The position numbers were made by a program, and so were the translations under genes. From an uncultured Candidatus Saccharibacteria bacterium (GTDB taxonomy: Bacteria; Patescibacteriota; Dojkabacteria; SC72): a stretch of 64,000 nucleotides of DNA. The notes beneath the pieces were generated by a model that was not told where the DNA came from, did not search any database, and saw only the letters and a program-made list of their open reading frames with translations. The stretch covers positions 77,611 through 141,610 of the forward strand of contig CAYOME010000001.1 in the NCBI GenBank assembly GCA_964405015.1, written 5' to 3'. Below, in pieces: positions 5,342 through 37,708 of the stretch; the first letter of the stretch is position 1, and each line of letters starts with the position of its first letter.

Positions 5342-5356
5342 TTTGAGGGAACTTAA
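5342..5356 (+). repeat. 15-mer TTTGAGGGAACTTAA, copy 1, immediately upstream of the glmS ribozyme
   Basis: Identical 15-mer recurs at 38253-38267. An AT-rich -10-like hexamer (TATACT) follows directly. Confidence 0.5.
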
Positions 5357-5363
5357 TATACTT

Positions 5364-5498
5364 AAGCGACTGGGTATACGTATGTATACAACGAGGAGAA
5401 GGATATCGAAATAATCAGCGGGTACCTTCAGGTTGTTGTAACAACCTAAAGATGATCTACAAAGGATACAAAAGGATCACTCATTACATTCCCATATA
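5364..5498 (+). ncRNA. glmS-rz: glmS ribozyme (GlcN6P-responsive self-cleaving riboswitch) in the glmS 5' leader
   Basis: Sits directly upstream of the glmS start codon. The core 'ACGAGGAGAAGGAUAUCGAAAUAAUCAGCGGGUACCUUC' matches the conserved glmS ribozyme core (GACGAGGAuGGAGGuuAUCGAAuuuuCGGCGGAUGCCUCC). The P2.1 pair covaries: GAAGG/CCUUC here versus GGAGG/CCUCC in the consensus. A P3 hairpin GGUUGUUguaAACAACC follows, and an AGCG cleavage-site motif lies at 5365/5366. Confidence 0.7.
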
Positions 5499-16016: not shown

Positions 16017-16094
16017 GGTGGCTATAGCTCAATTGGTTAGAGCATCGGTTTGTGGAACCGAGGGTTGTGGGTTCAAGTCCCATTAGCCACCCCA
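16017..16094 (+). tRNA. tRNA-His (anticodon GTG), with encoded G-1 and encoded CCA
   Basis: A cloverleaf was built by hand. The acceptor stem is GTGGCTA/TAGCCAC with G-1:C73. D-arm is GCTC...GAGC and the anticodon stem is TCGGT/ACCGA with loop TTGTGGA. The T-arm is GTGGG-TTCAAGT-CCCAT, and the 3' end is CCA. Confidence 0.9.
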
Positions 16095-21647: not shown

Positions 21648-21843
21648 ATTTTTTACTTTTTTCCAAAAAATTATTTAGGTCTTGGACATCTATTCTGTAT
21701 TGTTTACCGACTTTATAAGCAGTTAGCTTACCTGCTTTTACCCATCTAAATACAGTCAAATAGGATATTTTTAATAATTCAGCGATTTCATCTATTGTGT
21801 AGAATTGTGTGGCAGTTTTTTCTTGGTTATTCATCTTTATCAT
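21628..21843 (-). CDS. Excisionase/AlpA-family helix-turn-helix protein, a putative recombination directionality factor or R-M controller
   Basis: 71 aa; 'YTIDEIAELLKISYLTVFRWVKAGKLTAYKVGKQYRI' matches the HTH_17 excisionase-family HTH. Overlaps the mod start by 20 nt. Confidence 0.7.
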   Translation of the reverse strand: MIKMNNQEKTATQFYTIDEIAELLKISYLTVFRWVKAGKLTAYKVGKQYRIDVQDLNNFLEKSKKYGNSTI

Positions 21844-21883
21844 TATTTAACATTTTATATAAATATTCAAGAGATATGGAAAA

Positions 21884-23029
21884 TTATTTATGAACTACTC
21901 CTGTTAATTCTCTAGGTATAGTAACAAATAGGTTAAATTTGGATAATTGCTCATCAATATCATTGATAATATATGCCCTGTTATCCTCAACCTTTAGATT
22001 CTTAAGGAGTTTTTTGTAATTGCTCCATTTGTAACTGTCCTTTCCATACCAACCCATTGTGCTTCTTAATGCTTGAATCCCTCTAGTAGATATAATCCCT
22101 TGCATAAAAGATGTATTTATTAACTGTCTCTCTGATAGTTGTGGGTTTAGATTTTTAATAGATATCATCTTCTCGTAAAAATCCTCAGGCTTCCAAGTGA
22201 TACTTACATATTTATTTTTTATCTCTTTATTCCAAAAACTCGATAACATTGCTTGTGATAGCTTCCTACTGAATAGCTCTTTGAAGGTAAGTGGTGTTTC
22301 AGAATACTCAGGAGCGTAGCTCTGAATCTTTCTTTTTATTGCTTTCTGCCCAGTCATTCTAAACTCAAAACGCAGATAGTTATTATTAGGTAACTCATCA
22401 AGGAGATTAAGTTGTGTATATACTTGTTTATCTATACTCCTATCTTCGCTTATTTTACCTTGCTCTAATTCCCTTACTTTGTCATAAATAGCAAATTCAC
22501 TATCCTTATTATGTATATGTATTATTTGACCACCATTTTTGAATTGGTTCTCTGAGAAATCCTGCTTTAGATTGGTATCCAAAGCTTTCTTAAGCTGATT
22601 TAATACCATAGGACAGTTCAAGCCATCAGATAGCAGTATATTCTTAGAGAAGTGTATACCAACAACCTTAGAATCGATTAGACGCCCTCTAGAGATATGA
22701 AATTGATGCATCTTAAGTTTTAATTCAAGTTCATCAATGATTGATTCAAAATCATATTCACACACCTCTTGAAAATTGTTCTTGTAGAGTAGTTTAGGTA
22801 TTGAGAATTGAATATTTAAGCTAATATCTAATTCATTACGATACCTTCTGTAGAGAGTGTAAATAGGCACATATATACCTAGTTTTCTTTCTATCTCACT
22901 CGGATTTCGAGTATAAAATCTATAACCTCTGTCTGTTGTAAAAACATTCATAGCAGAGGGATTAAATTGTTCTAAATTGCCTATATCCATCTTTGTTGCT
23001 GGTATGGATAGAGTTATTGTGTCTATCAT
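21884..23029 (-). CDS. Hypothetical protein of the island core, weakly Rep_trans-like (a possible replication initiator)
   Basis: 381 aa. The N-terminus 'IDTITLSIP' and the internal 'RFEFRMTGQKA' recall rolling-circle Rep_trans proteins, but the resemblance is weak. Confidence 0.35.
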   Translation of the reverse strand: MIDTITLSIPATKMDIGNLEQFNPSAMNVFTTDRGYRFYTRNPSEIERKLGIYVPIYTLYRRYRNELDISLNIQFSIPKLLYKNNFQEVCEYDFESIIDELELKLKMHQFHISRGRLIDSKVVGIHFSKNILLSDGLNCPMVLNQLKKALDTNLKQDFSENQFKNGGQIIHIHNKDSEFAIYDKVRELEQGKISEDRSIDKQVYTQLNLLDELPNNNYLRFEFRMTGQKAIKRKIQSYAPEYSETPLTFKELFSRKLSQAMLSSFWNKEIKNKYVSITWKPEDFYEKMISIKNLNPQLSERQLINTSFMQGIISTRGIQALRSTMGWYGKDSYKWSNYKKLLKNLKVEDNRAYIINDIDEQLSKFNLFVTIPRELTGVVHK

Positions 23030-23291
23030 TCTTTTTCAATACTTCTTTTAATCTTTTATTTACTGCTTTCTCTATCGCTTGCCCTGATTCTTTGTTGATA
23101 GGGTAGTAGATATTGAAATTCTTCTCTCCAACCTTCCTTGTTGGATATACAAGTCGATATGATTCTTCTTCTAATCGCTTTATAACACCAATATTCCCAA
23201 GATAGATTGCATCTCCAATTACCAAACTTGCAAACGCTACTAATCCCTCTTTTGGCTTTACCAAATCAATACTTATTTCACTTATTTTCAT
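22962..23291 (-). CDS. SpoVG-like nucleic-acid-binding protein
   Basis: 'LVAFASLVIGDAIYLGNIGVIKRLEEESYRLVYPTRKVGEKNFNIYYPINKESGQAIEKAV' aligns with the conserved SpoVG core (KAxASITLDxxFVVxDIRVIxGxxGLFVAMPS...DIAHPINxxxRxxIQDAV). ~100 aa. Confidence 0.6.
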   Translation of the reverse strand: MKISEISIDLVKPKEGLVAFASLVIGDAIYLGNIGVIKRLEEESYRLVYPTRKVGEKNFNIYYPINKESGQAIEKAVNKRLKEVLKKNDRHNNSIHTSNKDGYRQFRTI

Positions 23292-23546
23292 TTACCTATA
23301 GCTTTAATTTAATATTCTCCTGTTCTATTTCATCTAAAAGAACAACAAAGTTAATTAGCTTCTCTATTTCGAAAGATTGTTCTGGAGATGTTTTAATAGT
23401 TGACTTATTTTCTATCAGTTTCTTCCATTTCTTATACTTTTGTTCTTTTTTGATATTTTCCATCATCAAGTAGATTCTATGATGACAGCTATAACCCTGT
23501 CGTAAAACAGGGATAAAATGGGATTTAATGGGATAGTTTGGAACTG

Positions 23547-24194
23547 TTACAATGTTACAGGGTTTTTGAATTTGATAGTGCTCTTTTCTGGATTAATGCT
23601 ATCTTCGTGGATATCAAAAAAAGTATCCTTCAGACCAGCTCTGAAACCCCATCTATCTGTAATCTTTTGGAATTTATCACTAATCACAATTCCTAATTGT
23701 TTTTCAAGTTCTTCCTTTTTATATATTGTATTTGGGTTATCATATAACCATTTGAATATACTTTCATTATCACGACCGAATTGCGGCTTAGAGAGTAATA
23801 TCTTTCCGTTTAATCTAATATTCCTATCTGATTTATACTCAACAAAAAAGTGATTGTTTTCAATTGTATTCTGGATAGAGTCGACCACATTAAGTTCCGA
23901 AGTAGCTTGAGCTATCAATTTTAAAAAATAATCTTTGTCTTTTACCTTTATATTATACCGAGCAGGAATAGGGGGTGGGAAATAACCTTCAAAGGGATTA
24001 AAAATTTCAAGTATTTCTAATTTACCATCCCTTTCAAATTGGTATAGGATAGAAAGTGCCTCATCATATTTAATATCTTTGATATGTTCACATCCAAAAT
24101 CTAATGTAGGATTTTCATCGGAAAGAACGAGCTTTGTAGCATCTATAATTGCAATAGCAAACTGTATTTTCTTTTCCTCGTAATTCATCTTCAA
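23547..24194 (-). CDS. Hypothetical protein (island cargo)
   Basis: 215-aa ORF; no recognisable motif. Confidence 0.4.
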   Translation of the reverse strand: MKMNYEEKKIQFAIAIIDATKLVLSDENPTLDFGCEHIKDIKYDEALSILYQFERDGKLEILEIFNPFEGYFPPPIPARYNIKVKDKDYFLKLIAQATSELNVVDSIQNTIENNHFFVEYKSDRNIRLNGKILLSKPQFGRDNESIFKWLYDNPNTIYKKEELEKQLGIVISDKFQKITDRWGFRAGLKDTFFDIHEDSINPEKSTIKFKNPVTL

Positions 24195-24479
24195 TACATC
24201 GTTATTTAATAGTTGTTTTAATAGTATTATAGCACTGCTTAAAGAAATCTTCTTAAGACAACTTTTATTCTCGGATATCTATATATGTAAACAACACCCC
24301 CTCCCTGGATACCCTATATCTACAAATAACAAAAATTTTCAATAAAAAGATAAGGAAGAAAGTCCTGTCTAATAAGAAAATTGACTCACGAGATGGTTTT
24401 CACAAGACCAAAATTGAATTCATAAAATTAACCCAATAAAAACAGTTGGGAAATGATTAAAAATAGGTGAGATAACTCT

Positions 24480-24800
24480 CTACTCTTTAAATCCAGTGGA
24501 ATCACGACAAAGAGTTCTTAACGTCTCTATGTCCTCTGTTCTCATATTAGGAAGACCTAGACCTTCTGAAACACATTCCATATATTTTTTTCTTTTTGCC
24601 TCGTTTTGAGATTCTAACTCTACCATTTGGTCCAGAATTAACTGTTCCTGTTGGTTTTGTAATTCCAATTCTCTTATCTGCCTATCAGAAATATCTTTGC
24701 TATTTTTTTGCCATACAAACCCAATAATAACTGCTACCAAAACTAGGGACACTCCAATAATCAAAGAGACTGTAACTGTAGTGTTATTCTTCTTTGCCAT
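24480..24800 (-). CDS. Small membrane-anchored coiled-coil protein
   Basis: An N-terminal TM helix followed by a Q/E-rich coiled coil. Confidence 0.4.
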   Translation of the reverse strand: MAKKNNTTVTVSLIIGVSLVLVAVIIGFVWQKNSKDISDRQIRELELQNQQEQLILDQMVELESQNEAKRKKYMECVSEGLGLPNMRTEDIETLRTLCRDSTGFKE

Positions 24801-24878
24801 AAGAGCAATGCTAAATTTATAACCAATTATAACAAAAATGGCTTAACGGTTACAGTTTGTTTACAGTATAATCAACAT

Positions 24879-25844
24879 ATGAGTGAAGAAGTATTGAAAA
24901 AGAAACAAATTATAGAGAAACAACACTATATTCCGCAATTTTACCTAAAACAGTTTGAAGATAAGAATCATCTGATTCAGAGGCTAGATATTAAAGCAAA
25001 CGTAATAATTAAGCCCAAGGGTAAGAAGGGTATTTGCTTTGACAAATTTTTCTATGCTTTAGAAACAGGTGTAGAAGATGAAGTCAGTCAATTGGTAGAA
25101 GAATGGTTAGGTAACCTAGAGAAACACTTATCAAAAAAACTCCCTGAGATAATAGACTCTCTATCCTGTAATGATGCTGTCCCTGATGAAGACAAATATG
25201 ATGTTGCAATGTTAATGGCAATGTTATATTTAAGAGGTCCTGTCTTCCGTAGGAAGCTAAACGAAATGAGATTATCAGGTATAAAACAACTTCTTCAAAT
25301 GTTTTCAAAAATTCCGAAAGATACAGTTGAAGATTATTTTAAGAATCGATATGAAGTTAGCCTAACAAAGGCAGAATTAAACAAACTCCTAAATGGTGAG
25401 GTTGACGACCTAAAGTTTAACAACCTTCTTCATTTGGAAATGATGAACGAGTTACGAGGTTTTTCAAATATGCTTTTTGGGCAAGAATGGCTGGTTTATA
25501 GAAATAAGTCTAGTTATCCATTTGTTACTTCTGATAATCCTTTGAGCCCTGAGAGGTTAGAAAGAAAAAACTTCTATACTGGTGCTTTTATGGATTACAC
25601 TTATCATTTCGCATTATCACCGAAGATACATATTGTTAGTAAAATGCCTAGATTTGTTGAAGGAAAAAAACTTCATAGAAAAACTTTAACAGAAACAGAT
25701 AATGATTTAGTTTTGAGATTGAATCTCTATGTAGCAGATACTTGTAGACAGTTTGTATATGCGTCGAAACGAAGTGCTTTAGAAGATATTTCTGATATTA
25801 TCAGAAGATACAAAGAAATTATTAGACTCAAACAGGAAGAATAA
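24879..25844 (+). CDS. DUF4238-family protein
   Basis: The N-terminal 'QHYIPQFYLKQF' hallmark of DUF4238; ~320 aa. A TATAAT hexamer lies 10 nt upstream of the ATG. Confidence 0.55.
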   Translation: MSEEVLKKKQIIEKQHYIPQFYLKQFEDKNHLIQRLDIKANVIIKPKGKKGICFDKFFYALETGVEDEVSQLVEEWLGNLEKHLSKKLPEIIDSLSCNDAVPDEDKYDVAMLMAMLYLRGPVFRRKLNEMRLSGIKQLLQMFSKIPKDTVEDYFKNRYEVSLTKAELNKLLNGEVDDLKFNNLLHLEMMNELRGFSNMLFGQEWLVYRNKSSYPFVTSDNPLSPERLERKNFYTGAFMDYTYHFALSPKIHIVSKMPRFVEGKKLHRKTLTETDNDLVLRLNLYVADTCRQFVYASKRSALEDISDIIRRYKEIIRLKQEE

Positions 25845-25918
25845 TCAAGCAATATTAAAACCAAAATTCAAAATTGAAACAACTCTATCAATTAGAATAA
25901 CTTGTTCAGAGTCAAGGT

Positions 25919-27571
25919 TCATAATAACGTCATATAACCGACCCCAGATAATATTTTCATAGATTCTAATGCGTTAAAAGGTTCACGAAGCTCATAGTGA
26001 AGCACCTTTTTATCACCTACAGAAATGTTCACAAACACTAATTTGACCAACTGATCAATTAGATAGGCATTTTCAGTATTTTCTATTGTAGCAACTATGT
26101 TTTTAAAGAAGTTCACAAATAAATCATAATCAGGGAATTCAACATTTGCATGATATTCAGCTTCCTTATTCTGAACTTCTAGACCCTCTCTTTCTACCTC
26201 TAGATCTCTTATTTGGTGAATAATAATCTTCATTTCTTTTGAAAGCTGATTATTAACCACTTCATCTGTGGTTTTCAATATTTTCTCACTATATAGATTC
26301 CTCTTCTTCTCAAGACTAGTAATTCTTATATTCAATTTCCTAATTTCCTCATTTCTTTCTTTTGTTAAAGAATTTACCTCTTCAAAGTAAATCATCTTAG
26401 TTTTATCATAACTAGGCCTTGTAACATTCAAATTCTTACTTATAAAATCAGTTACAAAATCTAGAATTATCTTACCTCTAATTGTATTAGCAATCGGTTT
26501 AATCTTTTTTGTCCTTCTAGTTTCTTTACACTTATTATTCCCACAAGTAACATTCAAATATCTATCAGACTTTCCTGCACTGACACCTGGAATCATAATA
26601 GAACCACAATCACTGCACATTACAAAATCCTTAAAAGGTCTGAAGTTATTATTCATTTTCCAACCTCTTGGATATATTGTTCCTCTCTTTTGAATTGCGA
26701 TGAAATCAGAAGCCGAAACCATAGGTTTAAAATCAGGATCAACAGATAATAAATCAATAACTTGATCACCATAACAATAAAAGCCCGCAGAAAATGGATC
26801 CTTAAAGAAGCCAGAAAGCTTACCCGTATTTAACTCTAATCCTTCATTTTCTAATTCAGCAACAATCTCTTTCTGGGATTTTCCTTCTTTATATTGTTCC
26901 CAAGCATAAGTATAACTATCGTAAGTGTTTTTATCGGGTCTAAAGAAATCAGCTTTATTGGGAAGATATCCTTTTTTACTGGATCCCATGTATTTACCCT
27001 CACTAACTTTCTTCTTATTTCCTCTTTTTGTATCTTCAGAAAGTTTATCCGAGAATTCCTTAGCCATTGCAAAAAGGATACTTAATGTCATTTTACCCGC
27101 CGCATCATTATTGAAAGTGTAAGAGGGGAATTTGAGGTCAATAATATGGTCGTTGTCCAACATGTCCATAATCTCACCTGACTCTTTCATGTTCCTTGCT
27201 AATCGGTCTGGATGCCATGCAAGAATGGAATTATATGAATTCCCTGAGTTCAAGGTATCAAGCATTCTTTGAAATTCAAGTCGCTTACCAGCTGTCATAG
27301 CACTTTTTTCTTCTCTAATAATCTCAACAACTTCTAGATTATTATCCTTAGCAAATTTCTTACAAATATCTATCTGATCATCAATAGATTGAACTTGTCT
27401 CTTTTCATCTTCGGTAGATTTACGAGCATAAATAACATAGAGAGCTTTCTTATCTATTAAATCTCTTTCATCTTTAGTCTTTTTCTTTTTAGAGTTGTAA
27501 ACTTGAGCGTAAGAGCGCAGTAATTCTCTAGATTGAACTTCTGTAAGTTTGTCCGCAGATTCCTTCATCAA
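25919..27571 (-). CDS. Large serine recombinase 2
   Basis: Resolvase domain 'ALYVIYARKSTEDE' with the catalytic Ser, a recombinase domain, a zinc ribbon 'CSDCGS...CGNNKC' and a C-terminal coiled coil. Same orientation as recombinase 1. Confidence 0.85.
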   Translation of the reverse strand: MMKESADKLTEVQSRELLRSYAQVYNSKKKKTKDERDLIDKKALYVIYARKSTEDEKRQVQSIDDQIDICKKFAKDNNLEVVEIIREEKSAMTAGKRLEFQRMLDTLNSGNSYNSILAWHPDRLARNMKESGEIMDMLDNDHIIDLKFPSYTFNNDAAGKMTLSILFAMAKEFSDKLSEDTKRGNKKKVSEGKYMGSSKKGYLPNKADFFRPDKNTYDSYTYAWEQYKEGKSQKEIVAELENEGLELNTGKLSGFFKDPFSAGFYCYGDQVIDLLSVDPDFKPMVSASDFIAIQKRGTIYPRGWKMNNNFRPFKDFVMCSDCGSIMIPGVSAGKSDRYLNVTCGNNKCKETRRTKKIKPIANTIRGKIILDFVTDFISKNLNVTRPSYDKTKMIYFEEVNSLTKERNEEIRKLNIRITSLEKKRNLYSEKILKTTDEVVNNQLSKEMKIIIHQIRDLEVEREGLEVQNKEAEYHANVEFPDYDLFVNFFKNIVATIENTENAYLIDQLVKLVFVNISVGDKKVLHYELREPFNALESMKILSGVGYMTLL

Positions 27572-27878: not shown

Positions 27879-29585
27879 ATGAAGGATGATATGGAATCTC
27901 TCCAGCCTTTTTGGGCTTCAGCGGATGAACTTTATGGAGAAATAAAAAGAGAAAAGGAAACCCTTATTGATTTAATAAAGGATTTAGATAAAAGAGAATT
28001 GATAAGAATATTCTCTGAACTTGTCGATGAGATAAATAAAAACAAGATGGCATTAAATGCCCAATATATACTTCCTTATCTAAACAGAAAAGAGAGAAAA
28101 AGACTTGAAAAGATTATCGACCTTGAAAAAGACTTCTTAATACACAAACAGCAATTATTTACTGCAATGAAGATTGTCTTCAAATATGCAAATGGTGATG
28201 AAAAAGTAACCGAGGAAAACAAATCAAAAATAGGGAAGTTTTTATTAAGTATCAACTATCTTTCAGATGAAGACGCTCGAGTAAAGAATGAGGAAAGACC
28301 TGATGACCTATTAAACAATTTAACAGGTGATCTCCTACCAGTCTTCTTCATTTCTGCAATTCTTGATCCTTCCAATAGATTCACAACACATTCTTTAGCT
28401 AGACAGTATTATAATTTTGTTCGATACTGGGAAGATCACTCTGGAGATAAAGATCTTGCAGTTCTTGAAGAAGATTTTGAAAAACTCACAGGTTTAAAGC
28501 TAAAAGATTACTTTACACTTTGCTTTGCTCTCGCATATCAAATAGTAAATGAGAAAGAATTCAAACCTCTAGATCTATTAAAATACTTTTCAAATACAAC
28601 GTTAGAAAAAGAAGTGAAATATTTAGAAGGGAGATTTTCTTCGAGCATTGAAGATTATAAGAAATCACCATTCTGGAATCCGAAAGAAGAAACACTACAA
28701 TCTCTAATGAAAGCAGATTATCTACCTATTATACAAAAACCATTGTGTTTAATAGACGACAAGAACAGTATAATCTTAGACAAATCTCTCTTAGCAAAGA
28801 AAATTCTTGAAGATCCATACTGGATACTAGAAAATCATTATTTAGCTCAAAAAGATGAAAAGAAAAGAAGGCAGCTATCAAGTGCTTTTGGGAATATGTG
28901 GCAAGATTATGTTTTAAAACAAATTCAGACAAATTTAACAACCAATGTCACAGAACTAGATGAAGAAGAATCAACAGGACAAATTGCAGACTTTTTAATA
29001 GAAACAGATAGTGCAATCATTGTAATTGAAACGAAGCATTTTATATACAGTTTGGATACTCAATCTGGAAAGCTTGAGAGTTTCAAGAAGGATACAGAGA
29101 AAGTTTTTGGAGATAAGCATGGCCTAATCCAAATAGATAGCACAATAGAGAATCTCAAACTAGAAGAAAAAGGGAAAAAGATATACAGAGTTATAATGAC
29201 CGATGAACTTGTTCCTGAAAATTTTATTTACTTCAAATACTATGAAGATCAATTTCCAAGCTATACCCCGAAGAATGAAAATATCAGCTATCCCATTGTT
29301 ATCACAAAAGATGAATTTGAAAGAATTATCACAGTTGGAGAAAAAGAATTTTGTGAATTACTAGAAATCCGAGATCAGGAATTGAAAGATCACGATGGTA
29401 AGGGTTTAACAAAAAATAAAGATGTCCAGAACACAATGCTAACATTGCAAGAGCATCCTGATCTAAAAAATAAAGAAAAGAATAATGTTTATTCAAAAGA
29501 GTTATTTGATGAACTCGCAGATTACGTTCGAAAATACTTATTTCCTAAGAAATACGAAGAAGAAAAAAAGGATAAGCAAAAATAA
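27879..29585 (+). CDS. Hypothetical protein with a C-terminal PD-(D/E)xK-like motif (putative nuclease)
   Basis: 568 aa. 'IADFLIETDSAIIVIETKH' gives a D...E-x-K arrangement on beta-strand-like hydrophobic segments; the N-terminal 350 aa are helical and unknown. Confidence 0.4.
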   Translation: MKDDMESLQPFWASADELYGEIKREKETLIDLIKDLDKRELIRIFSELVDEINKNKMALNAQYILPYLNRKERKRLEKIIDLEKDFLIHKQQLFTAMKIVFKYANGDEKVTEENKSKIGKFLLSINYLSDEDARVKNEERPDDLLNNLTGDLLPVFFISAILDPSNRFTTHSLARQYYNFVRYWEDHSGDKDLAVLEEDFEKLTGLKLKDYFTLCFALAYQIVNEKEFKPLDLLKYFSNTTLEKEVKYLEGRFSSSIEDYKKSPFWNPKEETLQSLMKADYLPIIQKPLCLIDDKNSIILDKSLLAKKILEDPYWILENHYLAQKDEKKRRQLSSAFGNMWQDYVLKQIQTNLTTNVTELDEEESTGQIADFLIETDSAIIVIETKHFIYSLDTQSGKLESFKKDTEKVFGDKHGLIQIDSTIENLKLEEKGKKIYRVIMTDELVPENFIYFKYYEDQFPSYTPKNENISYPIVITKDEFERIITVGEKEFCELLEIRDQELKDHDGKGLTKNKDVQNTMLTLQEHPDLKNKEKNNVYSKELFDELADYVRKYLFPKKYEEEKKDKQK

Positions 29586-30125
29586 TACCAAGATTTTTAC
29601 CAAGTTTTCCATAGTTTTTTAGTAACAAGGGAAGTTTTGAAACGCTTATGTAAATGCTACTAGTAGTTAACCAATAAGTATCACCAGGGAAAAGAAAGTA
29701 GAGTGTCTTAAGAAATACTCTTAAACCATCCATCTATTTTCTATCCTTTGTGAGGATCACTCCCTCAACATCTATGTATATCTTCATGTTACTACTATTT
29801 AATATTAATAACCCTCAACTTTCAAACCATTTTCCACTAAACACTTCCTATATTGATCAGGAGAATGAAGAATATTTAAAAGAAAATTATAAAGTAAAGG
29901 ATTAGTCTGGAAGGATATCCCCCCTAAAACTAAGTCTATCTTCCAATATATTCCAACATGGTCATCCATACCCCGATGTAACTAATCATCTACTTTGTAT
30001 CAATTTCCGACACACTAAATATTGAAATTTTGTTTTCATACCATGTATTACCATGTTTTGTTGAAAAAAGATGTAGTAGGGTAGCAATAATGGATTTTTA
30101 TTAAAGACATTAAAATTGCAACGTT

Positions 30126-30824
30126 TTAGTAATTATTTATTAAATCTATACCCTTTTCTGCATCAGGAAATACTTCAAACTTATATTTATTTGTAAAATA
30201 ATATTCAGGTAACTGTGAGAGTATCTTAGAATTAGATTCACCTTTCAACTGGTGATCACATCCCTCTATAATATGTGTTTGAACAGTCCTTGCGCTACTT
30301 GTATATCCTTTAAGGAATTCAAGGGTGTCAGGGGCTATTACAGAGTCTTCTGAGCCTATCACAATGAATAGATCTCCCTTATATCGTGGTAAATACTTCT
30401 GAATATCTTCCCTCAAGTTAGGGAGATTTATAAATGGATTAATAACTAAGACTTTGGTTACTTCTGGAAATTCCCAAGCTGTAAGTAATGCTGAAGCACC
30501 TCCAGCTGAGAATCCCATTAAAAATATTTCAGGGGTTTCAGATACAACGAATTCCAACGTTTTTTCTAAAGTGTAGTTAATCACCGTCCTTGCAGTTTCG
30601 TTGTAATCCTGAGGTCTTTCATTAGGTATTCTTACAAATGAAGCGATATTCCTTTTTTGAAGATAATTAGCTAAATTCAAGTATTTATTCTCATATCCTT
30701 CAGAAGTTCCACCTGCTCCAGGAATATTAATAATTACTTTGTTTGTTGAAGTAGGGTGATATGAGACAGGAATATCCCACCATGATTTAAGATAGATCTT
30801 TTCAGTTATGAAGGTATCACTCAC
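30126..30824 (-). CDS. Alpha/beta hydrolase (esterase or dienelactone-hydrolase-like)
   Basis: Nucleophile elbow 'GFSAGG' (GxSxG) and a C-terminal His (CDHQ). 232 aa. Confidence 0.6.
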   Translation of the reverse strand: MSDTFITEKIYLKSWWDIPVSYHPTSTNKVIINIPGAGGTSEGYENKYLNLANYLQKRNIASFVRIPNERPQDYNETARTVINYTLEKTLEFVVSETPEIFLMGFSAGGASALLTAWEFPEVTKVLVINPFINLPNLREDIQKYLPRYKGDLFIVIGSEDSVIAPDTLEFLKGYTSSARTVQTHIIEGCDHQLKGESNSKILSQLPEYYFTNKYKFEVFPDAEKGIDLINNY

Positions 30825-30827
30825 TTC

Positions 30828-31289
30828 CTAATATAATGCTCCTTGAATTACTTTAAAATATTTACCTCTATTCCTGTGATATTGGGGAAATTCTTTCTCT
30901 AAGTTTTCTACAATTTCCTTAAGGTTATTATCAACCTTTCTCCAGCAATCTAGTTTATCCTTTTGACATAGTATTTTTTCTTCATCACCAGAGATTCTAT
31001 TAGTAAACCAGTAAACTTTGTGTCTAAAATCGATAGCATCTGTTCTCAGGTCTTCCCAATTTACAACCTTCATAAACTTTAATCTATAGAATATATCTCT
31101 CTCCAAGACTCTATCAAAGTGTTCAATTAGTAAAGACGTATCACCACTTCTACAAAGGGTAGATAATATAAATACATTTCCATCAAATATCGTAGATAGT
31201 ATATCTAGAAATTCTTTTAGGTATGGCATTTGTTTACCATCTTTTATTAATATGACATTATCAATATCTATATATGCTCTCATAATCAT
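30828..31289 (-). CDS. Small HAD-like hydrolase (possible nucleotidase)
   Basis: N-terminal 'AYIDIDNVIL' matches HAD motif I (DxDx[TV]), with 'ILSTL' and 'GDEE' as candidate motifs II and IV. Only 153 aa. A 3-nt gap separates it from the hydrolase. Confidence 0.35.
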   Translation of the reverse strand: MIMRAYIDIDNVILIKDGKQMPYLKEFLDILSTIFDGNVFILSTLCRSGDTSLLIEHFDRVLERDIFYRLKFMKVVNWEDLRTDAIDFRHKVYWFTNRISGDEEKILCQKDKLDCWRKVDNNLKEIVENLEKEFPQYHRNRGKYFKVIQGALY

Positions 31290-31325
31290 ATGATTATAAA
31301 TGATCTGTGATTCTATACAGAAGCT

Positions 31326-31829
31326 TTACTCCTTAAATAATCCTCTCCTTTGACCTTCTTCTACTCCATATCCAATTCTTACTTCAAGCCTAGAATCTAA
31401 CTGCTTTTTTAATTCTCTGTAGGAATCAATCATCATTTTATATTCAATAAAAGATATTTCTTCTTTTTTATCTTTAGCCTCCTTGAGGACTGTAATTAGT
31501 GCAGTTAACACTTGTATATTTTTCTCAAACAAGTCTAAGTATTGTTTTAAGAGAACATCCTCTGGGAAATCTTTTCGAGATTGTATTTTCTCTAAGCTTT
31601 GTTTACATACCAAAAGATCATTCAAACAATCTTCGGATTTATCCTCATTTTTATTAAGCATTAGTTGCAAAACGGATTTGTCTTTTTGGAAGTATACCCT
31701 ATCTATCTCATTAAAAATTTTGAATACCTGAAAAGAATCTACTATTGCTTGTGTGTAAGCCTCTTTATCGTCTGACATATAAACTTCTGACCAAGTTATA
31801 TATAAATTGTTTGTGAGTATTTGAGACAA
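31326..31829 (-). CDS. Hypothetical helical protein; the start codon is uncertain (TTG at 31829 or ATG at 31778)
   Basis: The 167-aa ORF in the track begins at a TTG; the first ATG would give 150 aa. First gene of a three-gene minus-strand operon. Confidence 0.4.
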   Translation of the reverse strand: MSQILTNNLYITWSEVYMSDDKEAYTQAIVDSFQVFKIFNEIDRVYFQKDKSVLQLMLNKNEDKSEDCLNDLLVCKQSLEKIQSRKDFPEDVLLKQYLDLFEKNIQVLTALITVLKEAKDKKEEISFIEYKMMIDSYRELKKQLDSRLEVRIGYGVEEGQRRGLFKE

Positions 31830-31831
31830 GT

Positions 31832-31950
31832 GGTCTCCCGCTCACAGGTAGGTATCGCTACTCTACCTACTAGGGTTTCCCCTAGTAACCAGGTCAGTGA
31901 TTGCAAGACGGAAGACCGCCTATAACACTGACCTGGATTTAATTTTCTTT
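31832..31950. other. GC-rich structured element of unknown function: three perfect hairpins, a possible pseudoknot and a T-rich tail
   Basis: H1 is GTAGGTA-(9 nt)-TACCTAC at 31848-31870. H2 is TAGGG-TTTC-CCCTA at 31871-31884. H3 is CCAGGTCAGTG-(26 nt)-CACTGACCTGG at 31889-31936. The 5' GGUCUCC (31832-31838) can pair with GGAAGACC (31910-31917) in the H3 loop. H3 is followed by ATTTAATTTTCTTT on the + strand. Local GC is far above the ~30% background. Confidence 0.5.
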
Positions 31951-32023
31951 ACCATGCCTAATAAATAGGTTTAGGTAACTAAGATAATATTATTATGAGT
32001 TTGATAATTTTACAAATGCATAA

Positions 32024-33901
32024 TTAGAATCTATATACAATGTTCTTTTTTGCCTTTCTTTGACCACTGAAATCAAGAAGCATTTTTTCGAAATTCTCAT
32101 TACTTTCTTTTAACTTTTTTTGTTTTTTATCATAATAAAGAGTATCTTCAACAAACCCTTTAATTTCACTTGATACTAACTTAGTTGTGTCTTGAGGACA
32201 AACAGACAACAATTCTAATAGCATAGAAAATACTAAATTACTGACAAAGAAATAATATGGTATTAACTCGTTATTAAAACCTACTTCTAAATGATCCGCT
32301 CCGTTGTGTATAATCTTTGAGCGATATGAATAAGCTTTGCTATATCTTTTATTAAAATTCTGAAAATTTAAGCCTAAAGACTTAATTATTTTAGAATGAT
32401 TTTTAAAGAGCTCTTTATTTTGATAATTTATTGAATGTTCGTATTCTAAAGCATTACGCATATTTGAATTTTTAAATTCAGGAACTTTGTTGATTATCTC
32501 AATTATCTTTTTAAACTCTAGGTCTCCTTCGCCTTTTCTCCTAGAAGGAGTAAAATATGCTCCGAGTTTATCTATAATTCCCCACAGCTCTACGTAGGAG
32601 GATGCTAAAGAATGGGGTTGCTTAGAATCACGGTAATCCCTCAACAAGCCTTTTATGAAAAGCCTGAAGTTCTTACCTTTTCTATGAAGATTTGTTATTG
32701 ATGGATTTAGATATTTTGCATACTCAAAACTATACAACGAATTATAGGATCTTCCTTTATGACTATTATAAATGTAATTCCTCTCTGAAAAAATCGCGTT
32801 TCTATTAAATAACGATAAAATCAAAGATATCTCTTCAAGAAATTCTAACGGTTGTTCAACTTTTTGGGAATTTAATTCTAATGTATGTGTCCAAATCATT
32901 CTCCCCTCCGATGGAGGAAATATTTCCTCTTTAATCTCAGCTGGAATCCCAAGGGAGATATCTACAGATCTCTTAGAGGTCTTAGTCGGTTTATAAAAAA
33001 ATCTCATATCTTGATCATAAGTGAGATTCTTAACAATCCTAAATCGAGATGCGGAGATATAAGGAAAGCCATCGATCTCAAAGTTGTAAAGTTTATATAG
33101 CAATATTTTACTTTTCGAATCAAGACCTCTATCCTTTATATTTATTAGCAATCCAGTTGACAAATCAGACTTTAAAAAAGTATCTTTTATAGAGATAAAT
33201 CCACCTTTGTATGAATACCTTTCTTCCAATAATTTTAACAACCTTTCTGAAAATATATAGAATTCACCTAAAAATATGTTAACAGCTTTGAAAAGTTCAG
33301 GAATAGGTGAATTGTCTCTTGGTATAATACTAATCTTTTTCGTTCCATCTTCTTCTATAGATGTTTGCGCTTTTGTCATGTTTAAATACCCTTTTTGAAA
33401 CCTGTTCAACAAAATTTGTATTTGCTGTTGATTCTCAGTTAACAGAAAAAGCTTCAAGTATTCTGCAATTGTTGTATCTCTTAGCGCTAGCTCGTTAATA
33501 ATCTCTTCAACCTGAATTTCTTCATCTTTGACACCCAAATCAAAGAAATAAGCAATAAAATTTAACATACTATATTTTATTGTGTAAATGTGGTTGATCA
33601 GATCTAACAAAAGGAAACCTTTGACGAAGTCTTTGCTATACATCTCATTAGAAAGGGGTAGTTCGCCATTTATATGTTTAACTGAAAAATTCAAATCTTT
33701 TATTCGATCACGTAAATAAATAATTCTTTGTAGAGAGGCTTGATTACGAACAAACTTGTTAATGTTTAGTTTTTCATGAATGCTAACTCCTGAATTTAAT
33801 GGATCCTCTGTTGCAAACTGCGATACAGTAGATTGTATCTTATCCCATATTTCTAATATTTTTTCCGGATCTTCTGTAACACTTAGTTTATTATGTTCCA
33901 A
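32024..33901 (-). CDS. Hypothetical protein with a C-terminal Rx4H (HEPN-like) motif
   Basis: 625 aa, mostly helical. 'YRSKIIHNGADH' near the C-terminus fits the HEPN Rx4-6H signature. No other recognisable domain. Last gene of the MmeI-like operon. Confidence 0.4.
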   Translation of the reverse strand: MEHNKLSVTEDPEKILEIWDKIQSTVSQFATEDPLNSGVSIHEKLNINKFVRNQASLQRIIYLRDRIKDLNFSVKHINGELPLSNEMYSKDFVKGFLLLDLINHIYTIKYSMLNFIAYFFDLGVKDEEIQVEEIINELALRDTTIAEYLKLFLLTENQQQIQILLNRFQKGYLNMTKAQTSIEEDGTKKISIIPRDNSPIPELFKAVNIFLGEFYIFSERLLKLLEERYSYKGGFISIKDTFLKSDLSTGLLINIKDRGLDSKSKILLYKLYNFEIDGFPYISASRFRIVKNLTYDQDMRFFYKPTKTSKRSVDISLGIPAEIKEEIFPPSEGRMIWTHTLELNSQKVEQPLEFLEEISLILSLFNRNAIFSERNYIYNSHKGRSYNSLYSFEYAKYLNPSITNLHRKGKNFRLFIKGLLRDYRDSKQPHSLASSYVELWGIIDKLGAYFTPSRRKGEGDLEFKKIIEIINKVPEFKNSNMRNALEYEHSINYQNKELFKNHSKIIKSLGLNFQNFNKRYSKAYSYRSKIIHNGADHLEVGFNNELIPYYFFVSNLVFSMLLELLSVCPQDTTKLVSSEIKGFVEDTLYYDKKQKKLKESNENFEKMLLDFSGQRKAKKNIVYRF

Positions 33902-33922
33902 TGCTTAATTATTATGTTAATT

Positions 33923-34597
33923 TTATTCTGAATTTTCTGGCCATAATTTTGGCATAGATTCAGGAGCACGAATTTGCCAAAATGTATTCGGAATACTAAG
34001 ATTCTTATCATCGTCTTCATGATAAAAAGTGATATTTTTATAGGGATCAAATGCATTAAGTCCATATTGAGAACATAGCAATATTCCAAGCGCAGCAACA
34101 GAGAACACTGCATTTTCCAGGTTCGCCCAATAAAATTTAGAGTCTCTATTATGTTTTACTTGATTATATACATAATACCAGTCTAACCATTCTCCATTAT
34201 CGCAGAACTTCCAAACATCAGAATATCCTGAACAGCTCTGCCATGTCATATAAGGAGATAAATTCGCACCATATTGTCCTTCTATTTTCCAATCAGCTAA
34301 AAGGGGAGAATAAAAACAATAATCATAAAGCTCGAGTTTATTTGCTGATTTAAAATAAGTTTCAATATTGGAATTCTTTATCTCTTCATCAGTTGAATTA
34401 TTCTTCTTTAATATCTGGCGAGAAACATTTTCAAATTCAGTCCCACATCTGAGAATTATTTCATAAAAACGATGAGAGTAGGTTTGCTTGTTTTGATCAA
34501 CAGGTTCTATATAATCAAAAGTTTTTAAAAGGTCACTCTCTAAAAGGTTGTATGCTTTGCAATTAGAAAACCTTCTATCCACTTCCAGTCTATTCAT
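33923..34597 (-). CDS. Hypothetical protein (Trp/Tyr/Cys-rich)
   Basis: 224 aa with no recognised motif; a 21-nt gap separates it from the next gene. Confidence 0.45.
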   Translation of the reverse strand: MNRLEVDRRFSNCKAYNLLESDLLKTFDYIEPVDQNKQTYSHRFYEIILRCGTEFENVSRQILKKNNSTDEEIKNSNIETYFKSANKLELYDYCFYSPLLADWKIEGQYGANLSPYMTWQSCSGYSDVWKFCDNGEWLDWYYVYNQVKHNRDSKFYWANLENAVFSVAALGILLCSQYGLNAFDPYKNITFYHEDDDKNLSIPNTFWQIRAPESMPKLWPENSE

Positions 34598-34636: not shown

Positions 34637-37600
34637 TTAGAAAGCCACAGTGTCAATTTCTTTGATTATTTTATCAGTTTCTCTAAGAACTATTGTTATC
34701 ATGGAATAGTGTTCAATATCATCAGGACTTAATTCTCTCCCTTTCCTATCCATCAACCATTTCTGAGCTGGTTGATATCCACCTATATAGAAATTCCAAG
34801 CTACTTCGGATACATTTCCGAAACATTGAGTAGAGTTGACATATATCTTTCCATCCTCAAACTTTGTCCTTTCAACAACATTATTTCCTTCTCCTAGGTA
34901 TGATACCTCGTATGGGTCTATATTCTTGTGTTCGAGTAGATGATATTTGATAAGTTCATTTCCTAATTTAGTCAATTTATCAAATGTCTCCCGGTCTTTA
35001 GGATATGGAATTCTAGGATAATCAATTTTTAAAAATTCTTGAAATTTCTCTCTATATTTTGAACTATTAAGAACAGCGTAAGTATACCTAAGAATCTCTT
35101 CTGGAGTTATTTTGCCAATGTGAGACTCTATCTTTTCAATGATACCTTCGTTTAAGTTAGCTTTCCTCACATCTTCACCCTCGGTAAAAGTATAGAGTGG
35201 AAATATTTGCTCTGCACCTTGCATACCTGGCCGAGACCAATATCTTCTGTCGACAATTCGATTAGAGATAAAACAAGGGGAGCTTCGAGATTCGTCAAAA
35301 CCTCTTTTCACAATAAGACCTACATTATTTCTCAACATATACTTCATAACGTTATATCTGCCATTGCATACAAAGCCATTCTGTTTACCGGTATAGAAGG
35401 TCTTACGAATATCAAAGGGTCTATATAAGATATCAACAAAATTAGTATATTCACCGATATTTTGAAGGATGTCTGCCTTTGCTCTGTTGATTTTCCAATC
35501 TCGTGAATCCTTCGTTTTATATTTTAAGGCAATTTCGTTTTCCGACAGATCGGCAAAATCATCAACAACATTCCGGATTTCTTGATCTGTAAATTGAATT
35601 GCTATCGAATCCCTAACAGTTTCAACACCAGAGACAGATTGAATAAATAAACCATCTATAGGAATATATTCATCGTAAATTGACTTATTCGTAAAATCTT
35701 TTTTAACAAAATAAAAATTTGGTTTAGTATAGTCAAGCTTAGAATACTCAATCTTATCAAATTCATTTGATAATCCCTCAAATTTCTTTTTTCTCAATCC
35801 AAATAGATCTTTATGATAAACACTTGCTAAGTTTGTTTTATCATTTCCAACTTTAACAAAAATGTTAATAGAAACACCTTGTTGGATATCAAAAACATTC
35901 TCATCCCTTGAACCATCTGGTGCAACTTCCTTCTTTTTTGAGTTTCCATGCAAGTCTAGTATATAAATATTATCAAATGTCTCTAAAAGGTGCTTTCGCA
36001 TTTGCCTATGGGTGATACCATCCAAAAATGAATTATTTGTAATCATTGCCACAATTCCACTACCATTCTTCTCAACTAATGATTCTGCAAACCTTATAAA
36101 CTTTATATAATCATCATCTAGATTTATTTTTTTCTCATTTAAATCTTGTTTGTATACTTTAATTAAATTCTGAATCCAATCTCCTTTATTTTGTGAACTA
36201 ACACTATATGGAGGGTTTCCTAATATAACCATTATGGGTTTGTCTTTTTTAATCTCAGAAGCTTCTTTAGACTCTTGAGATATACTATCAGCTAAACCAA
36301 AGCCTTCGAACATATCACCAATTGTGTTTCCTTCTTCCAGAGAATTAGTTAGGTAGATTCCTAATCTTCTGTTGTTAAAGTATTTGAAACCCATTTCTTT
36401 TAACAACATACTCATCTTCAGATGAGCAATGGTATATGGAGCAATCATTATTTCAAATCCAAATAACCTCGGAAGAACTTCATGTAATACATAGCTTCCC
36501 CAATTTCCAGCTTGTTTTTGTCTTCTCTCGTGTATTATCTTGATAACTTCCGTTAAAAAAGTTCCTGTTCCTGTAGCAGGGTCTAATACTTGAACTACAT
36601 GTCCTTTTTCATTCTTGGAGCTGTTCGCAAGTCCTCCTGTGAGCTTAAAATCATGTTCTAGTATATGGTCTACACTTTTTACAATGAATTGAACAACTGG
36701 AAGTGGGGTATAGTAAGCTCCAAATTCTTTTCTCTTCTTACTATCATACTCTTGTAGAAAATCCTCATAGAAGTGTATTACAGGGTCTTTAGATCCTTTC
36801 TCCGTGCCGTAATAATTACTGATGAGTTTAGAGATATCTGAATGAGAAAATACTCTACAAAGCTCATCAACGATACTATCCAATCTGTCATCAAAATCAG
36901 CTCCTGCTATATGGTCGAAGAAATGTCTTAGTAGTGGGTTTGAAGCTGGAACTAAATCCCTAGCTTCTGACCTAGTAAAAGTATCAGGAGATGTATCGTG
37001 GAATCTTGCAACAAACAAGCCGTAGACTAGAGTTTGTGCATACATGTCTGCGAAATCATCGGTTGACATATCATGTATGAGTTGTCTTTTCATGGTCTCG
37101 TAGACTTTATAGATACTTCGCTTCTCTTTTTCAGGACTATTAAGCATCTCTCTTGCATTCTCTCTAATACGATATGCTTTTCCACCCATTATCTTAGCCA
37201 GATGAGAACCAGATTTAATTGCTTCTTTATGAGATTCCGTAAATTGGATTAATGTTTTTCTTAATAGCTCAAAGTTTTCTGGATTGTATGATAGGGTTCT
37301 TTCTTTTTTATCGTATGAAGCAATAGAAATAGGCTCAACGTATTTAATTCCGTTCCTGTAGAATCTAAATTCTAAATAATCTGTTAATATGAGATTGTCA
37401 TATCCATAATATCGCGTAAGTTGTTCAGATTTCTCAATCTTATCAAGTGATACTCCAATATCTTTTACTTCTACATAAAGTAGGGGAACACTTCCTTTTG
37501 ATAAAACAAAGTCTGGCTTATTACCACCTACAGCCTTTCCATCGTGATCAATGTTTGTAACTTTTATTTCGCTAAATATTTCTTTTAGAAAGTTTTCGAA

Positions 37601-37708
37601 TGGTGTCCGGTATCCATATTCCGATGTTTGTGTTTGTGAATACTTTTCAGATACTTCGTTTAAGTAGCGATTCAATATCTCGTAGGTTGTTTTTAAAGTT
37701 GTATCCAT
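34637..37708 (-). CDS. MmeI-family Type IIL restriction-modification enzyme (fused PD-ExK endonuclease, gamma-class N6-adenine methyltransferase and target-recognition domain)
   Basis: The N-terminal 'PDFVLSKGSVPLLYVEVKDIGVSLDK' parallels the MmeI nuclease motif 'VDLFWPGILLIEMKSRGKDLDK'. 'GAYYTPLPVV' matches MmeI 'GAHYTSEANI'. Motif IV 'ILGNPPYSV' matches MmeI 'ILGNPPFVG'. 1023 aa. Confidence 0.85.
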   Translation of the reverse strand: MDTTLKTTYEILNRYLNEVSEKYSQTQTSEYGYRTPFENFLKEIFSEIKVTNIDHDGKAVGGNKPDFVLSKGSVPLLYVEVKDIGVSLDKIEKSEQLTRYYGYDNLILTDYLEFRFYRNGIKYVEPISIASYDKKERTLSYNPENFELLRKTLIQFTESHKEAIKSGSHLAKIMGGKAYRIRENAREMLNSPEKEKRSIYKVYETMKRQLIHDMSTDDFADMYAQTLVYGLFVARFHDTSPDTFTRSEARDLVPASNPLLRHFFDHIAGADFDDRLDSIVDELCRVFSHSDISKLISNYYGTEKGSKDPVIHFYEDFLQEYDSKKRKEFGAYYTPLPVVQFIVKSVDHILEHDFKLTGGLANSSKNEKGHVVQVLDPATGTGTFLTEVIKIIHERRQKQAGNWGSYVLHEVLPRLFGFEIMIAPYTIAHLKMSMLLKEMGFKYFNNRRLGIYLTNSLEEGNTIGDMFEGFGLADSISQESKEASEIKKDKPIMVILGNPPYSVSSQNKGDWIQNLIKVYKQDLNEKKINLDDDYIKFIRFAESLVEKNGSGIVAMITNNSFLDGITHRQMRKHLLETFDNIYILDLHGNSKKKEVAPDGSRDENVFDIQQGVSINIFVKVGNDKTNLASVYHKDLFGLRKKKFEGLSNEFDKIEYSKLDYTKPNFYFVKKDFTNKSIYDEYIPIDGLFIQSVSGVETVRDSIAIQFTDQEIRNVVDDFADLSENEIALKYKTKDSRDWKINRAKADILQNIGEYTNFVDILYRPFDIRKTFYTGKQNGFVCNGRYNVMKYMLRNNVGLIVKRGFDESRSSPCFISNRIVDRRYWSRPGMQGAEQIFPLYTFTEGEDVRKANLNEGIIEKIESHIGKITPEEILRYTYAVLNSSKYREKFQEFLKIDYPRIPYPKDRETFDKLTKLGNELIKYHLLEHKNIDPYEVSYLGEGNNVVERTKFEDGKIYVNSTQCFGNVSEVAWNFYIGGYQPAQKWLMDRKGRELSPDDIEHYSMITIVLRETDKIIKEIDTVAF

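Follow-up and report, generated by a model that had tools for sequence, protein, structure and literature searches.

A LOOT RNA-led operon with an alpha/beta hydrolase and a mini-HAD-like protein at a conserved locus of Candidatus Dojkabacteria

Results

The locus and its transcription unit

The subject of this study is a group of three open reading frames (ORFs) in a 64,000-nucleotide (nt) stretch of DNA from an uncultured bacterium of the Dojkabacteria lineage (the window, i.e., the whole stretch that was analyzed), together with the structured RNA that precedes them. The ORFs lie on the minus strand in the same orientation, separated by gaps of 36 nt and 3 nt, and this tight packing agrees with an earlier note on this DNA. 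In the order of transcription they encode a helical protein of 150 amino acids (aa), a small protein resembling the HAD superfamily (henceforth mini-HAD), and an alpha/beta hydrolase (Table 1). The GC-rich structured element that the note had placed upstream of them is real, and proved to be a copy of the LOOT RNA. In the favored reading, the three ORFs are one minus-strand transcription unit, with the promoter just upstream of LOOT and LOOT as the 5' leader; the unit is the form that a conserved Candidatus Dojkabacteria locus takes in the window strain. A recurrent neighborhood in several arrangements, and a fusion in one lineage, show that the hydrolase and the mini-HAD are functionally coupled.

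Table 1. Coordinates of the operon, its leader and the neighboring features in the window.
Feature	Position	Strand	Remarks
Helical protein gene	31326-31778 (alternative 31326-31829)	-	ATG start, 150 aa (alternative TTG start, 167 aa); first gene of the operon
Mini-HAD-like gene	30828-31289	-	153 aa; divergent; DIDNV motif I kept, motif III K to R, motif IV DD to TN
Alpha/beta hydrolase gene	30126-30824	-	232 aa, GTG start; predicted lid-less, esterase-like; conserved anchor of the locus
-10-like promoter box TAATAT	31987-31992	-	a few nt ahead of the LOOT 5' end; aligns with a near-invariant TATAAT
LOOT RNA core (RF03000), hairpins P1-P5	31851-31977	-	cmscan 57.9 bits (gathering score 46.4), E = 2.8e-8, full model 1-121
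Leader extension past the Rfam model	31779-31850	-	P6 stem, pseudoknot partner, copy of the P2 5' strand
P6 stem	31841-31846 with 31812-31817	-	in the leader extension
Pseudoknot partner GGGAGACC	31832-31839	-	pairs with the P3 loop, 31910-31917
Copy of the P2 5' strand CTTGGTCAGAAG	31784-31795	-	ends 5 nt before the ATG
Haplotype 1, P2 5'/3' strands CCAGGTCAGTG / CACTGACCTGG			start-region copy CTTGGTCAGAAG
Haplotype 2, P2 5'/3' strands CCCGGTTAGTG / CACTAACCGGG			start-region copy CTTGGTTAGAAG
Haplotype 3, P2 5'/3' strands CCACACCAATG / CATTGGTGTGG			start-region copy CCACACCAATGG (contains the ATG)
Possible local hairpin of the start region	31784-31810	-	AUAACUU-GGUCAG-AAGUUUAU, ending at the AUG
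glmS ribozyme (Rfam RF00234)	5354-5490	+	60.2 bits
588-aa ORF, presumed glmS	5524-7290		directly downstream of the ribozyme
tRNA-His	16018-16094	+	3' end overlapped by the next feature
Large serine recombinase gene	16083-17576	-
ResIII helicase/nuclease	17554-20061
N6/N4 DNA methyltransferase	20064-21647
Exchanged cargo	21591-26142		381-aa ORF, SpoVG-like genes, DUF4238
568-aa ORF	27879-29585	+	convergent with the hydrolase gene
Gene pair (625 aa, 224 aa)	32024-34597	-	just upstream of LOOT
Type IIG restriction-modification enzyme	34637-37708	-	1023 aa

The note had left the start of the helical gene open between a TTG and an ATG. The question is decided in favor of the ATG at 31778, and the TTG reading falls, because the extension to the TTG belongs to RNA sequence whose nucleotides are conserved in other loci and that translates there to unrelated "peptides"; the layout of the leader at LOOT settles this start as well, and gene callers run on the source contigs likewise chose 150 aa. 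For the mini-HAD, the second methionine (MRAYIDID) is the probable start, judging from the alignment to relatives that begin MKIYLDIDG. Relatives were found elsewhere for all three proteins, and the differences from them at codon positions 1/2/3 were 49/29/80 for the helical gene and 69/46/129 for the hydrolase gene, i.e., mostly in the third position, while the distribution for the mini-HAD gene (60/47/72) was flatter than those of its two neighbors.

The hydrolase is the only clearly intact enzyme of the operon

The note's call of a GxSxG alpha/beta hydrolase is borne out. The 232-aa protein matches PF12146 (Hydrolase_4) at 28.1 bits, barely above the cut-off of 27, and eleven further alpha/beta hydrolase families of Pfam match it below their cut-offs. 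The nucleophile elbow GFSAG (G-x-S-x-G), which the note had named, surrounds the nucleophile Ser106, with G104 and S106 invariant in 21 sequences; the catalytic triad has the order Ser-Asp-His, and its residues S106, D160 and H191 are all invariant. The segment with the acid and the histidine aligns to the esterase 7xrh, and the family profile, compared to the PDB, retrieved cinnamoyl and chlorogenic-acid esterases, a carboxylesterase and a monoacylglycerol lipase at weak expectation values (E) of ~1e-5 (2e-5 to 1e-4). These features are indicative of a small, lid-less enzyme of the esterase type. With the small carboxyl, cinnamoyl and chlorogenic-acid esterases (PDB 7xrh, 5jd6 and 8slj) the window hydrolase shares the GxSxG elbow, the Ser-Asp-His order and a length of ~230-250 aa; however, the similarity to them is only marginal and partial. 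It is the only clearly intact enzyme of the window operon.

Relatives of the hydrolase formed 48 clusters with 51-63% identity, and the few that carry names belong to Candidatus Dojkabacteria; the genome loci that were fetched with the hydrolase come from metagenome-assembled genomes of Dojkabacteria or from genomes labelled Saccharibacteria. These relatives point to a Dojkabacterium as the origin of the window. The family is mostly restricted to Dojkabacteria, plus one huge phage. The phage homologue (locus L067; LR756500.1, 66547-67170; 36% identity, E = 2e-30) lies in a 462-kb uncultured "huge phage" and is solitary there, with neither a mini-HAD nor an ADP-ribosylglycohydrolase.

The mini-HAD family and its divergent copy in the window

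A word-index protein search with the 153-aa protein returned the query alone, and the family was assembled from ORFs in the hydrolase loci, which yielded proteins of 129-140 aa that are 31-40% identical to the window copy; the column identity of the mini-HAD is 61%. The family carries the four HAD motifs in order, i.e., YLDIDGV (motif I), WL(S/T)TH (motif II), KTEGID (motif III) and WFDD (motif IV). The motif I that the note had reported is present in the window protein (YIDIDNV, with DIDNV at residues 8-12), where D8 and D10 are invariant in the family, and the motif II threonine, T44, is invariant as well (ILSTL in the window). The other two motifs have diverged: the motif III lysine, which is conserved in at least 90% of the family, is replaced in RTDAID, and the acidic pair of motif IV, conserved at the same level, is replaced in WFTN. 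Having lost both the lysine of motif III and the Asp-Asp of motif IV, the window mini-HAD is probably inactive, and we regard this copy as probably catalytically impaired or re-purposed. The nucleotidase activity that had been considered possible for it is therefore doubtful in this strain.

Membership of the mini-HAD family in the HAD superfamily is probable. The closest curated family is PF18143 (HAD_SAK_2), which 12 of the 17 family members match below its cut-off of 27.5 bits (best E = 1.8e-4; the copy in locus L003 scores 19.6 bits), while the window protein gave no match to it. Compared to the PDB, the family profile matched Cof-type HAD phosphatases, solely over motif I (E = 0.13-0.19), and a single-sequence AlphaFold model of the window protein was unusable (predicted local distance difference test of 44.9). 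The Pfam matches of the window protein to DUF1389 and to the Cas9 WED domain are weak and were treated as noise. The family resembles PF18143 and small cap-less HAD phosphatases in the canonical order of motifs I-IV and in a domain of ~130 aa; however, PF18143 is the HAD of "Swiss Army Knife" RNA-repair proteins, whereas the mini-HAD locus has no nearby ligase or kinase, and the mini-HAD family has no curated model of its own.

Partnership of the genes across related loci

All locus counts refer to 39 non-redundant hydrolase genes (at most 97% identity). The mini-HAD lies within 3.5 kb of the hydrolase, or is fused to it, in 25 of them, in at least five arrangements: (i) directly upstream, overlapping the hydrolase gene; (ii) convergent, just downstream; (iii) directly downstream; (iv) divergent upstream, in which case the mini-HAD is fused to an ADP-ribosylglycohydrolase; (v) beyond an FtsK-family gene. 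In one lineage (L053/L054), mini-HAD and hydrolase form a single polypeptide of 371 aa. The note's claim that the genes belong together is upheld, for the mini-HAD and the hydrolase, by this co-occurrence in other genomes. A contrary explanation is that the genes are adjacent by chance, as leftovers gathered by insertions at a recombination hot spot. Mobile elements flank the locus, and the helical gene is rare, with three relatives among 1.84 billion representatives in an exhaustive HMMER search, both as that explanation would have it; however, the recurrent pairing and the fusion largely refute it for the mini-HAD and the hydrolase, and the domain of the helical protein occupies the same slot in two other loci (L061 and L066). 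We consider a chance assembly highly improbable, the least credible of the explanations weighed here.

The general layout of the locus is a LOOT leader, one or several variable small genes that usually encode multi-pass membrane proteins, and then the Ser-Asp-His hydrolase, with a mini-HAD and often an ADP-ribosylglycohydrolase and an FtsK-family gene as its partners. Neither NCBIfam nor Pfam returned a match for most of the genes that separate LOOT from the hydrolase, apart from one match to DUF805. An FtsK/SpoIIIE protein with a gamma domain adjoins the hydrolase at 16 loci, the distant fused lineage included; a role of this neighbor as a secretion ATPase was rejected, as it carries the FtsK gamma domain. 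The distant lineage (L053/L054, L055, L057 and L059), whose hydrolase is ~36% identical to that of the window, keeps the order FtsK, mini-HAD, hydrolase, so that the link to the FtsK family may go back further than any other feature of the locus. The fullest version on one contig was observed in L025 (7913-14546), with two copies of the hydrolase: LOOT (under the Rfam gathering score but clear by nhmmer), small membrane proteins, a c22-family protein, hydrolase, ADP-ribosylglycohydrolase, FtsK, mini-HAD and the second hydrolase.

The 150-aa helical protein is a generic, soluble four-helix bundle; a word-index protein search returned the query alone, NCBIfam and Pfam gave nothing, and weak Pfam matches to DUF5365 and PrpR_N were treated as noise. 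One of its relatives, P0051 (358 aa), lies in L061/L062 between LOOT (4708-4835) and the hydrolase (6001), and the C-terminal half of P0051 is a domain that L025, L026 and L051 encode as a gene of its own, immediately before the hydrolase. Another, P0053, is found in L066, where the gene order is LOOT, small ORF, membrane protein, helical protein, FtsK. Both relatives of known context, in two other lineages, thus occupy the slot downstream of LOOT, so that the helical gene as part of the unit is supported in part; gene context points to a rare accessory of the LOOT-hydrolase locus.

Association with ADP-ribosylglycohydrolase

An ADP-ribosylglycohydrolase, either fused to the mini-HAD or standing alone beside the hydrolase, was found at 12 of the 39 loci. 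The fusions (L021, L027, L028 and L032) are proteins of 391-395 aa with an N-terminal PF03747 (ADP_ribosyl_GH) domain (E = 7e-34) and a C-terminal mini-HAD, and the best NCBIfam models of the glycohydrolase domain are DraG and Tri1, both sub-threshold. In the 64-kb window, neither an ADP-ribosylglycohydrolase ORF nor an FtsK gene was found. Systems in which an ADP-ribosylglycohydrolase is coupled to phosphatases, including HAD 5'-nucleotidases, have been described and interpreted as reversing viral ADP-ribosylation (Iyer, Burroughs, Anantharaman and Aravind 2022, PMC9503650).

This raises the alternative that the window operon is a degenerate remnant of such a system, directed against ADP-ribosylation by phages or competitors, which has lost its glycohydrolase and in which the HAD protein is decaying; in the relatives, the glycohydrolase would remove ADP-ribose, and the HAD phosphatase and the esterase would process the product. 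The fusions, the neighborhoods of glycohydrolase, HAD and hydrolase, and the DraG and Tri1 models are all in line with this possibility, as is the role that was predicted for the glycohydrolase-plus-phosphatase systems. Conversely, 27 of the 39 hydrolase loci have no glycohydrolase nearby, the hydrolase gene of the window is intact and conserved, and the Nudix or WYL regulator, the chaperone and the effector that are typical of such systems were not seen. The likeness consists in a glycohydrolase fused or adjacent to a HAD-type phosphatase in the relatives, whereas the window has a degenerate HAD and control here appears to lie with an RNA leader. We did not file the operon under the ADP-ribosylglycohydrolase-centric systems because the window lacks the glycohydrolase and because the alpha/beta hydrolase, which is the conserved partner here, is not mentioned among the components in PMC9503650. 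A remnant of this kind is, in our view, unlikely.

The LOOT RNA: extent, conservation and synteny

The LOOT RNA motif corresponds to Rfam RF03000 (Weinberg et al. 2017, PMC5737381). The whole model is matched in the window above the gathering score, and covariation among the related loci supports every hairpin of the model. Differences from the published motif, which Rfam types as "Gene; sRNA", are that LOOT occurs here in Candidatus Dojkabacteria behind a conserved -10 box, and that it runs on for another ~70 nt, which add a pseudoknot and one more stem and place a copy of the P2 5' strand over the start region of the following gene. The -10 assignment rests on conservation, i.e., on a TATAAT that is near-invariant in all other LOOT loci with upstream sequence, because a generic promoter scan missed the box and found no excess of promoter-like hexamers within the unit over shuffled sequence.

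Using the Rfam model and an nhmmer profile, we found LOOT on the strand of the hydrolase, 0.4-2.3 kb upstream of it, at 15 of 27 non-redundant loci that were informative, i.e., whose upstream sequence reaches 2.5 kb or more. LOOT is also present in L048, L049 and L066, and the copy in L007 heads a gene convergent with the hydrolase. In viral contigs, two gapped LOOT patterns hit at least 120 and 13 stretches, none of which is LOOT by nhmmer, and the 13 are Rfam-negative too.

An alignment of 18 non-redundant LOOT copies shows that conservation extends ~70 nt beyond the Rfam model, up to the start codon. The LOOT helices are 89-100% paired across these sequences, with many compensatory changes; in the model helices, 95.4% of the cells are paired, compared to 34-45% when the strands are slid, and 26 pairs change on both sides, although few independent haplotypes contribute. 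The P3 loop GGTCTTCC and its partner in the extension, GGGAGACC, form a pseudoknot that is 100% paired in 18 of 18 sequences, with three of the eight pairs changing on both sides. The fold of the 221-nt leader has a z score of -5.6 compared to shuffles.

A copy of a stem strand at the start of the first gene

The repeat of the P2 5' strand is located just before or over the ATG of the first ORF, and it covaries with P2. Both strands of P2 and this copy covary three ways, in three haplotypes characterized by GGTCAG, GGTTAG and CACCAA (Table 1). The alternative helix, in which the P2 3' strand pairs with the start region, is 84.9% paired, compared to 25-46% when slid, and six of its pairs change on both sides. 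The distance of the ATG from the start of the copy is fixed at either 16-20 nt or 8 nt, and the first gene after LOOT encodes a multi-pass membrane protein at 14 of 17 loci. In haplotype B, the alternative helix (-22.6 kcal/mol) is more stable than P2 (-18.2 kcal/mol). An explanation of the direct repeat, formed by the P2 5' strand and its copy, as the duplication of a recombination site was rejected, as the copy covaries with the P2 3' strand in the three haplotypes and its distance to the ATG is fixed.

Because of the -10 box, the covarying pseudoknot beyond the Rfam model and the copy of a stem strand over the start of the first gene, LOOT looks like a cis-acting leader of the operon. The contrary explanation is that LOOT is an independent, trans-acting small RNA (sRNA) in mere conserved synteny, while the three genes have a promoter of their own and are not regulated by LOOT. 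That would agree with the Rfam class, with the differences among strains in the genes that follow LOOT, with the one locus (L060) in which the start-region copy is missing, and with P2 being much more stable than the alternative helix in the window haplotype. On the other hand, a terminator-like site (a hairpin followed by a T run) was found nowhere in positions 29900-32100, the stretch from LOOT to the ORF included, and a free-standing sRNA does not fit the nucleotide conservation from LOOT to the start codon, the fixed offset of the ATG and the three-way covariation. We deem an independent sRNA rather unlikely.

Translational riboswitches and anti-sequestor leaders resemble LOOT in having, behind a conserved pseudoknotted fold, a sequence that may pair with a strand of an aptamer stem; the LOOT copy overlaps the ribosome-binding site or the AUG, and the downstream gene usually encodes a membrane protein. 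The LOOT case differs from them in that its support comes from three haplotypes only and in that the alternative helix is weak in the window haplotype. The minimum-free-energy fold of the window start region contains a possible local hairpin (Table 1) that presents the GGUCAG copy in its loop, and therefore a loop-to-helix contact, rather than a full exchange of strands, is possible in this haplotype.

The surroundings and the question of defense

The neighborhood of the operon contains a tRNA-His overlapped by a serine recombinase gene, a pair of ResIII and methyltransferase genes, a DUF4238 gene, a second large serine recombinase, a GapS1-like gene and a type IIG enzyme (Table 1). The note had seen in this a defense island and had suggested an anti-phage role, such as nucleotide depletion, for the operon. 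The corresponding explanation is an anti-phage system in which a HAD-like nucleotidase and the hydrolase would be the effectors and the RNA a sensor or regulator. The position of the operon between the type IIG enzyme, the type III-like restriction pair, the serine recombinases and the weak GapS1-like gene speaks for it, and so does the strong variation among strains of the genes between LOOT and the hydrolase, as in conflict loci. However, a search of PADLOC-DB 2.0 gave no family match for the three proteins, whereas the neighboring type IIG restriction enzyme did match, and in the window mini-HAD both the lysine of motif III and the Asp-Asp of motif IV are missing. In addition, the hydrolase (52-63% identical to the window copy) and the mini-HAD are conserved in the lineage, often beside an FtsK-family gene, and the neighboring mobile DNA has been exchanged without the operon. 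The proposed anti-phage role is not supported by this comparison, and we hold a self-contained system of this kind to be very unlikely.

The exchange is seen in a comparison to another Dojkabacterium (L004). Positions 21591-26142 of the window and 1-4551 of L004 have 90% DNA identity, compared to 69% for the adjoining recombinase gene and 65% for the hydrolase gene (~58% for the hydrolase protein); the recently exchanged mobile cargo therefore moves independently of the operon. A serine recombinase lies within 7 kb of the hydrolase at 18 of the 39 loci. The locus borders an integration hot spot and is not itself cargo, and the restriction and recombinase genes are separate insertions; nor is the operon a mobile cassette, being conserved in the lineage and adjoining an FtsK-family gene at the 16 loci mentioned above. 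Of the note's defense island, the setting stands, i.e., defense and mobile genes do surround the operon, but these genes are independent insertions.

Several observations concern the neighbors themselves. The segment 16018-21647 looks like an element integrated at the tRNA-His and carrying a type III-like restriction system. The 568-aa ORF matches the NCBIfam GapS1 model at E = 6e-10 but with 38.6 bits, compared to a cut-off of 320; it also has a weak NERD match and has no relatives in the other loci. The sole Pfam signal of the gene pair upstream of LOOT is a weak match to DUF5677, and NCBIfam returned no match for either protein; a homologue of the 625-aa protein lies beside LOOT, on the opposite strand, in L061/L062, and homologues of the 224-aa protein adjoin LOOT in L014 and L066. 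The type IIG enzyme (PADLOC REase_MTase_IIG, E = 1e-268) has homologues near the hydrolase in 12 fetched loci, on the other side of it; compared to L017/L018, the segment from LOOT to the hydrolase is therefore inverted relative to the tRNA and restriction-enzyme flanks. Far from the operon, the window contains a glmS ribozyme directly upstream of the presumed glmS gene, and a second copy of this ribozyme occurs in the related locus L013.

Discussion

The favored reading is that of a LOOT-led, lineage-conserved operon with a coupled hydrolase and mini-HAD, and not of a self-contained mobile anti-phage system; we assign it, as a whole, a probability of about one half. Under this reading, the enzymes of the locus (glycohydrolase, phosphatase and esterase) would act one after another on a single small substrate, an ADP-ribose- or nucleotide-type phospho- or acyl-ester, which could serve salvage or clean-up. 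In the window, the mini-HAD and the helical protein would be non-catalytic or accessory partners. The LOOT fold would control the translation of the first gene, with the P2 3' strand pairing either inside LOOT or with the repeated P2 5' strand, which overlaps the ribosome-binding site or the start codon.

A number of points weigh against this reading. The locus does sit among defense genes, and LOOT is absent from 12 of the 27 informative hydrolase loci; moreover, the linkage of LOOT to the hydrolase carries an ascertainment bias because the LOOT loci were collected through the hydrolase or the helical protein, and not through LOOT. The nearest solved relatives of the hydrolase are generic esterases with weak E values, and the HAD assignment rests on motifs and on sub-threshold Pfam matches. 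The covariation in the RNA stems from only about three haplotype groups, such that the statistics based on shuffles overstate its independence, and an extreme cross-covariation in LOOT has been reported by Rivas (PMC7657543). In the window haplotype, the alternative helix is weak (-12.1 kcal/mol, compared to -20.5 kcal/mol for P2), and L060 has no start-region copy. Finally, we infer the biochemical role of the operon, and the ADP-ribose idea is borrowed from the relatives because the window has no ADP-ribosylglycohydrolase.

A more far-reaching version can be formulated, in which LOOT would be the aptamer of a new riboswitch-like translational element specific to Candidatus Dojkabacteria, and not a free sRNA. 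The pseudoknotted fold would determine if the P2 3' strand remains in the aptamer or sequesters the start region of the following gene. The operon under its control, usually of multi-pass membrane proteins, esterase, HAD phosphatase and glycohydrolase, would import and dismantle an ADP-ribose- or nucleotide-like metabolite, and this metabolite or a related one would be the ligand. We offer this version tentatively, as something we would not expect to hold in full.

The speculative defense call is replaced here by a lineage-specific pair of an esterase and a mini-HAD that is tied, via gene fusions, to ADP-ribosylglycohydrolase. Dojkabacteria have tiny genomes and depend on salvage, so that the few genes they conserve usually matter. 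Of the side results, the most interesting is the argument that LOOT is a pseudoknotted leader that acts in cis in Dojkabacteria. To our knowledge, LOOT was previously known only from metagenomes and without gene context; this orphan Rfam motif can now be assigned a host lineage and a promoter, together with a 3' extension whose pseudoknot is well supported and a plausible expression platform. The hypothesis of a riboswitch-like LOOT leader is now directly testable, and the enzymes under its proposed regulation point to candidate ligands.

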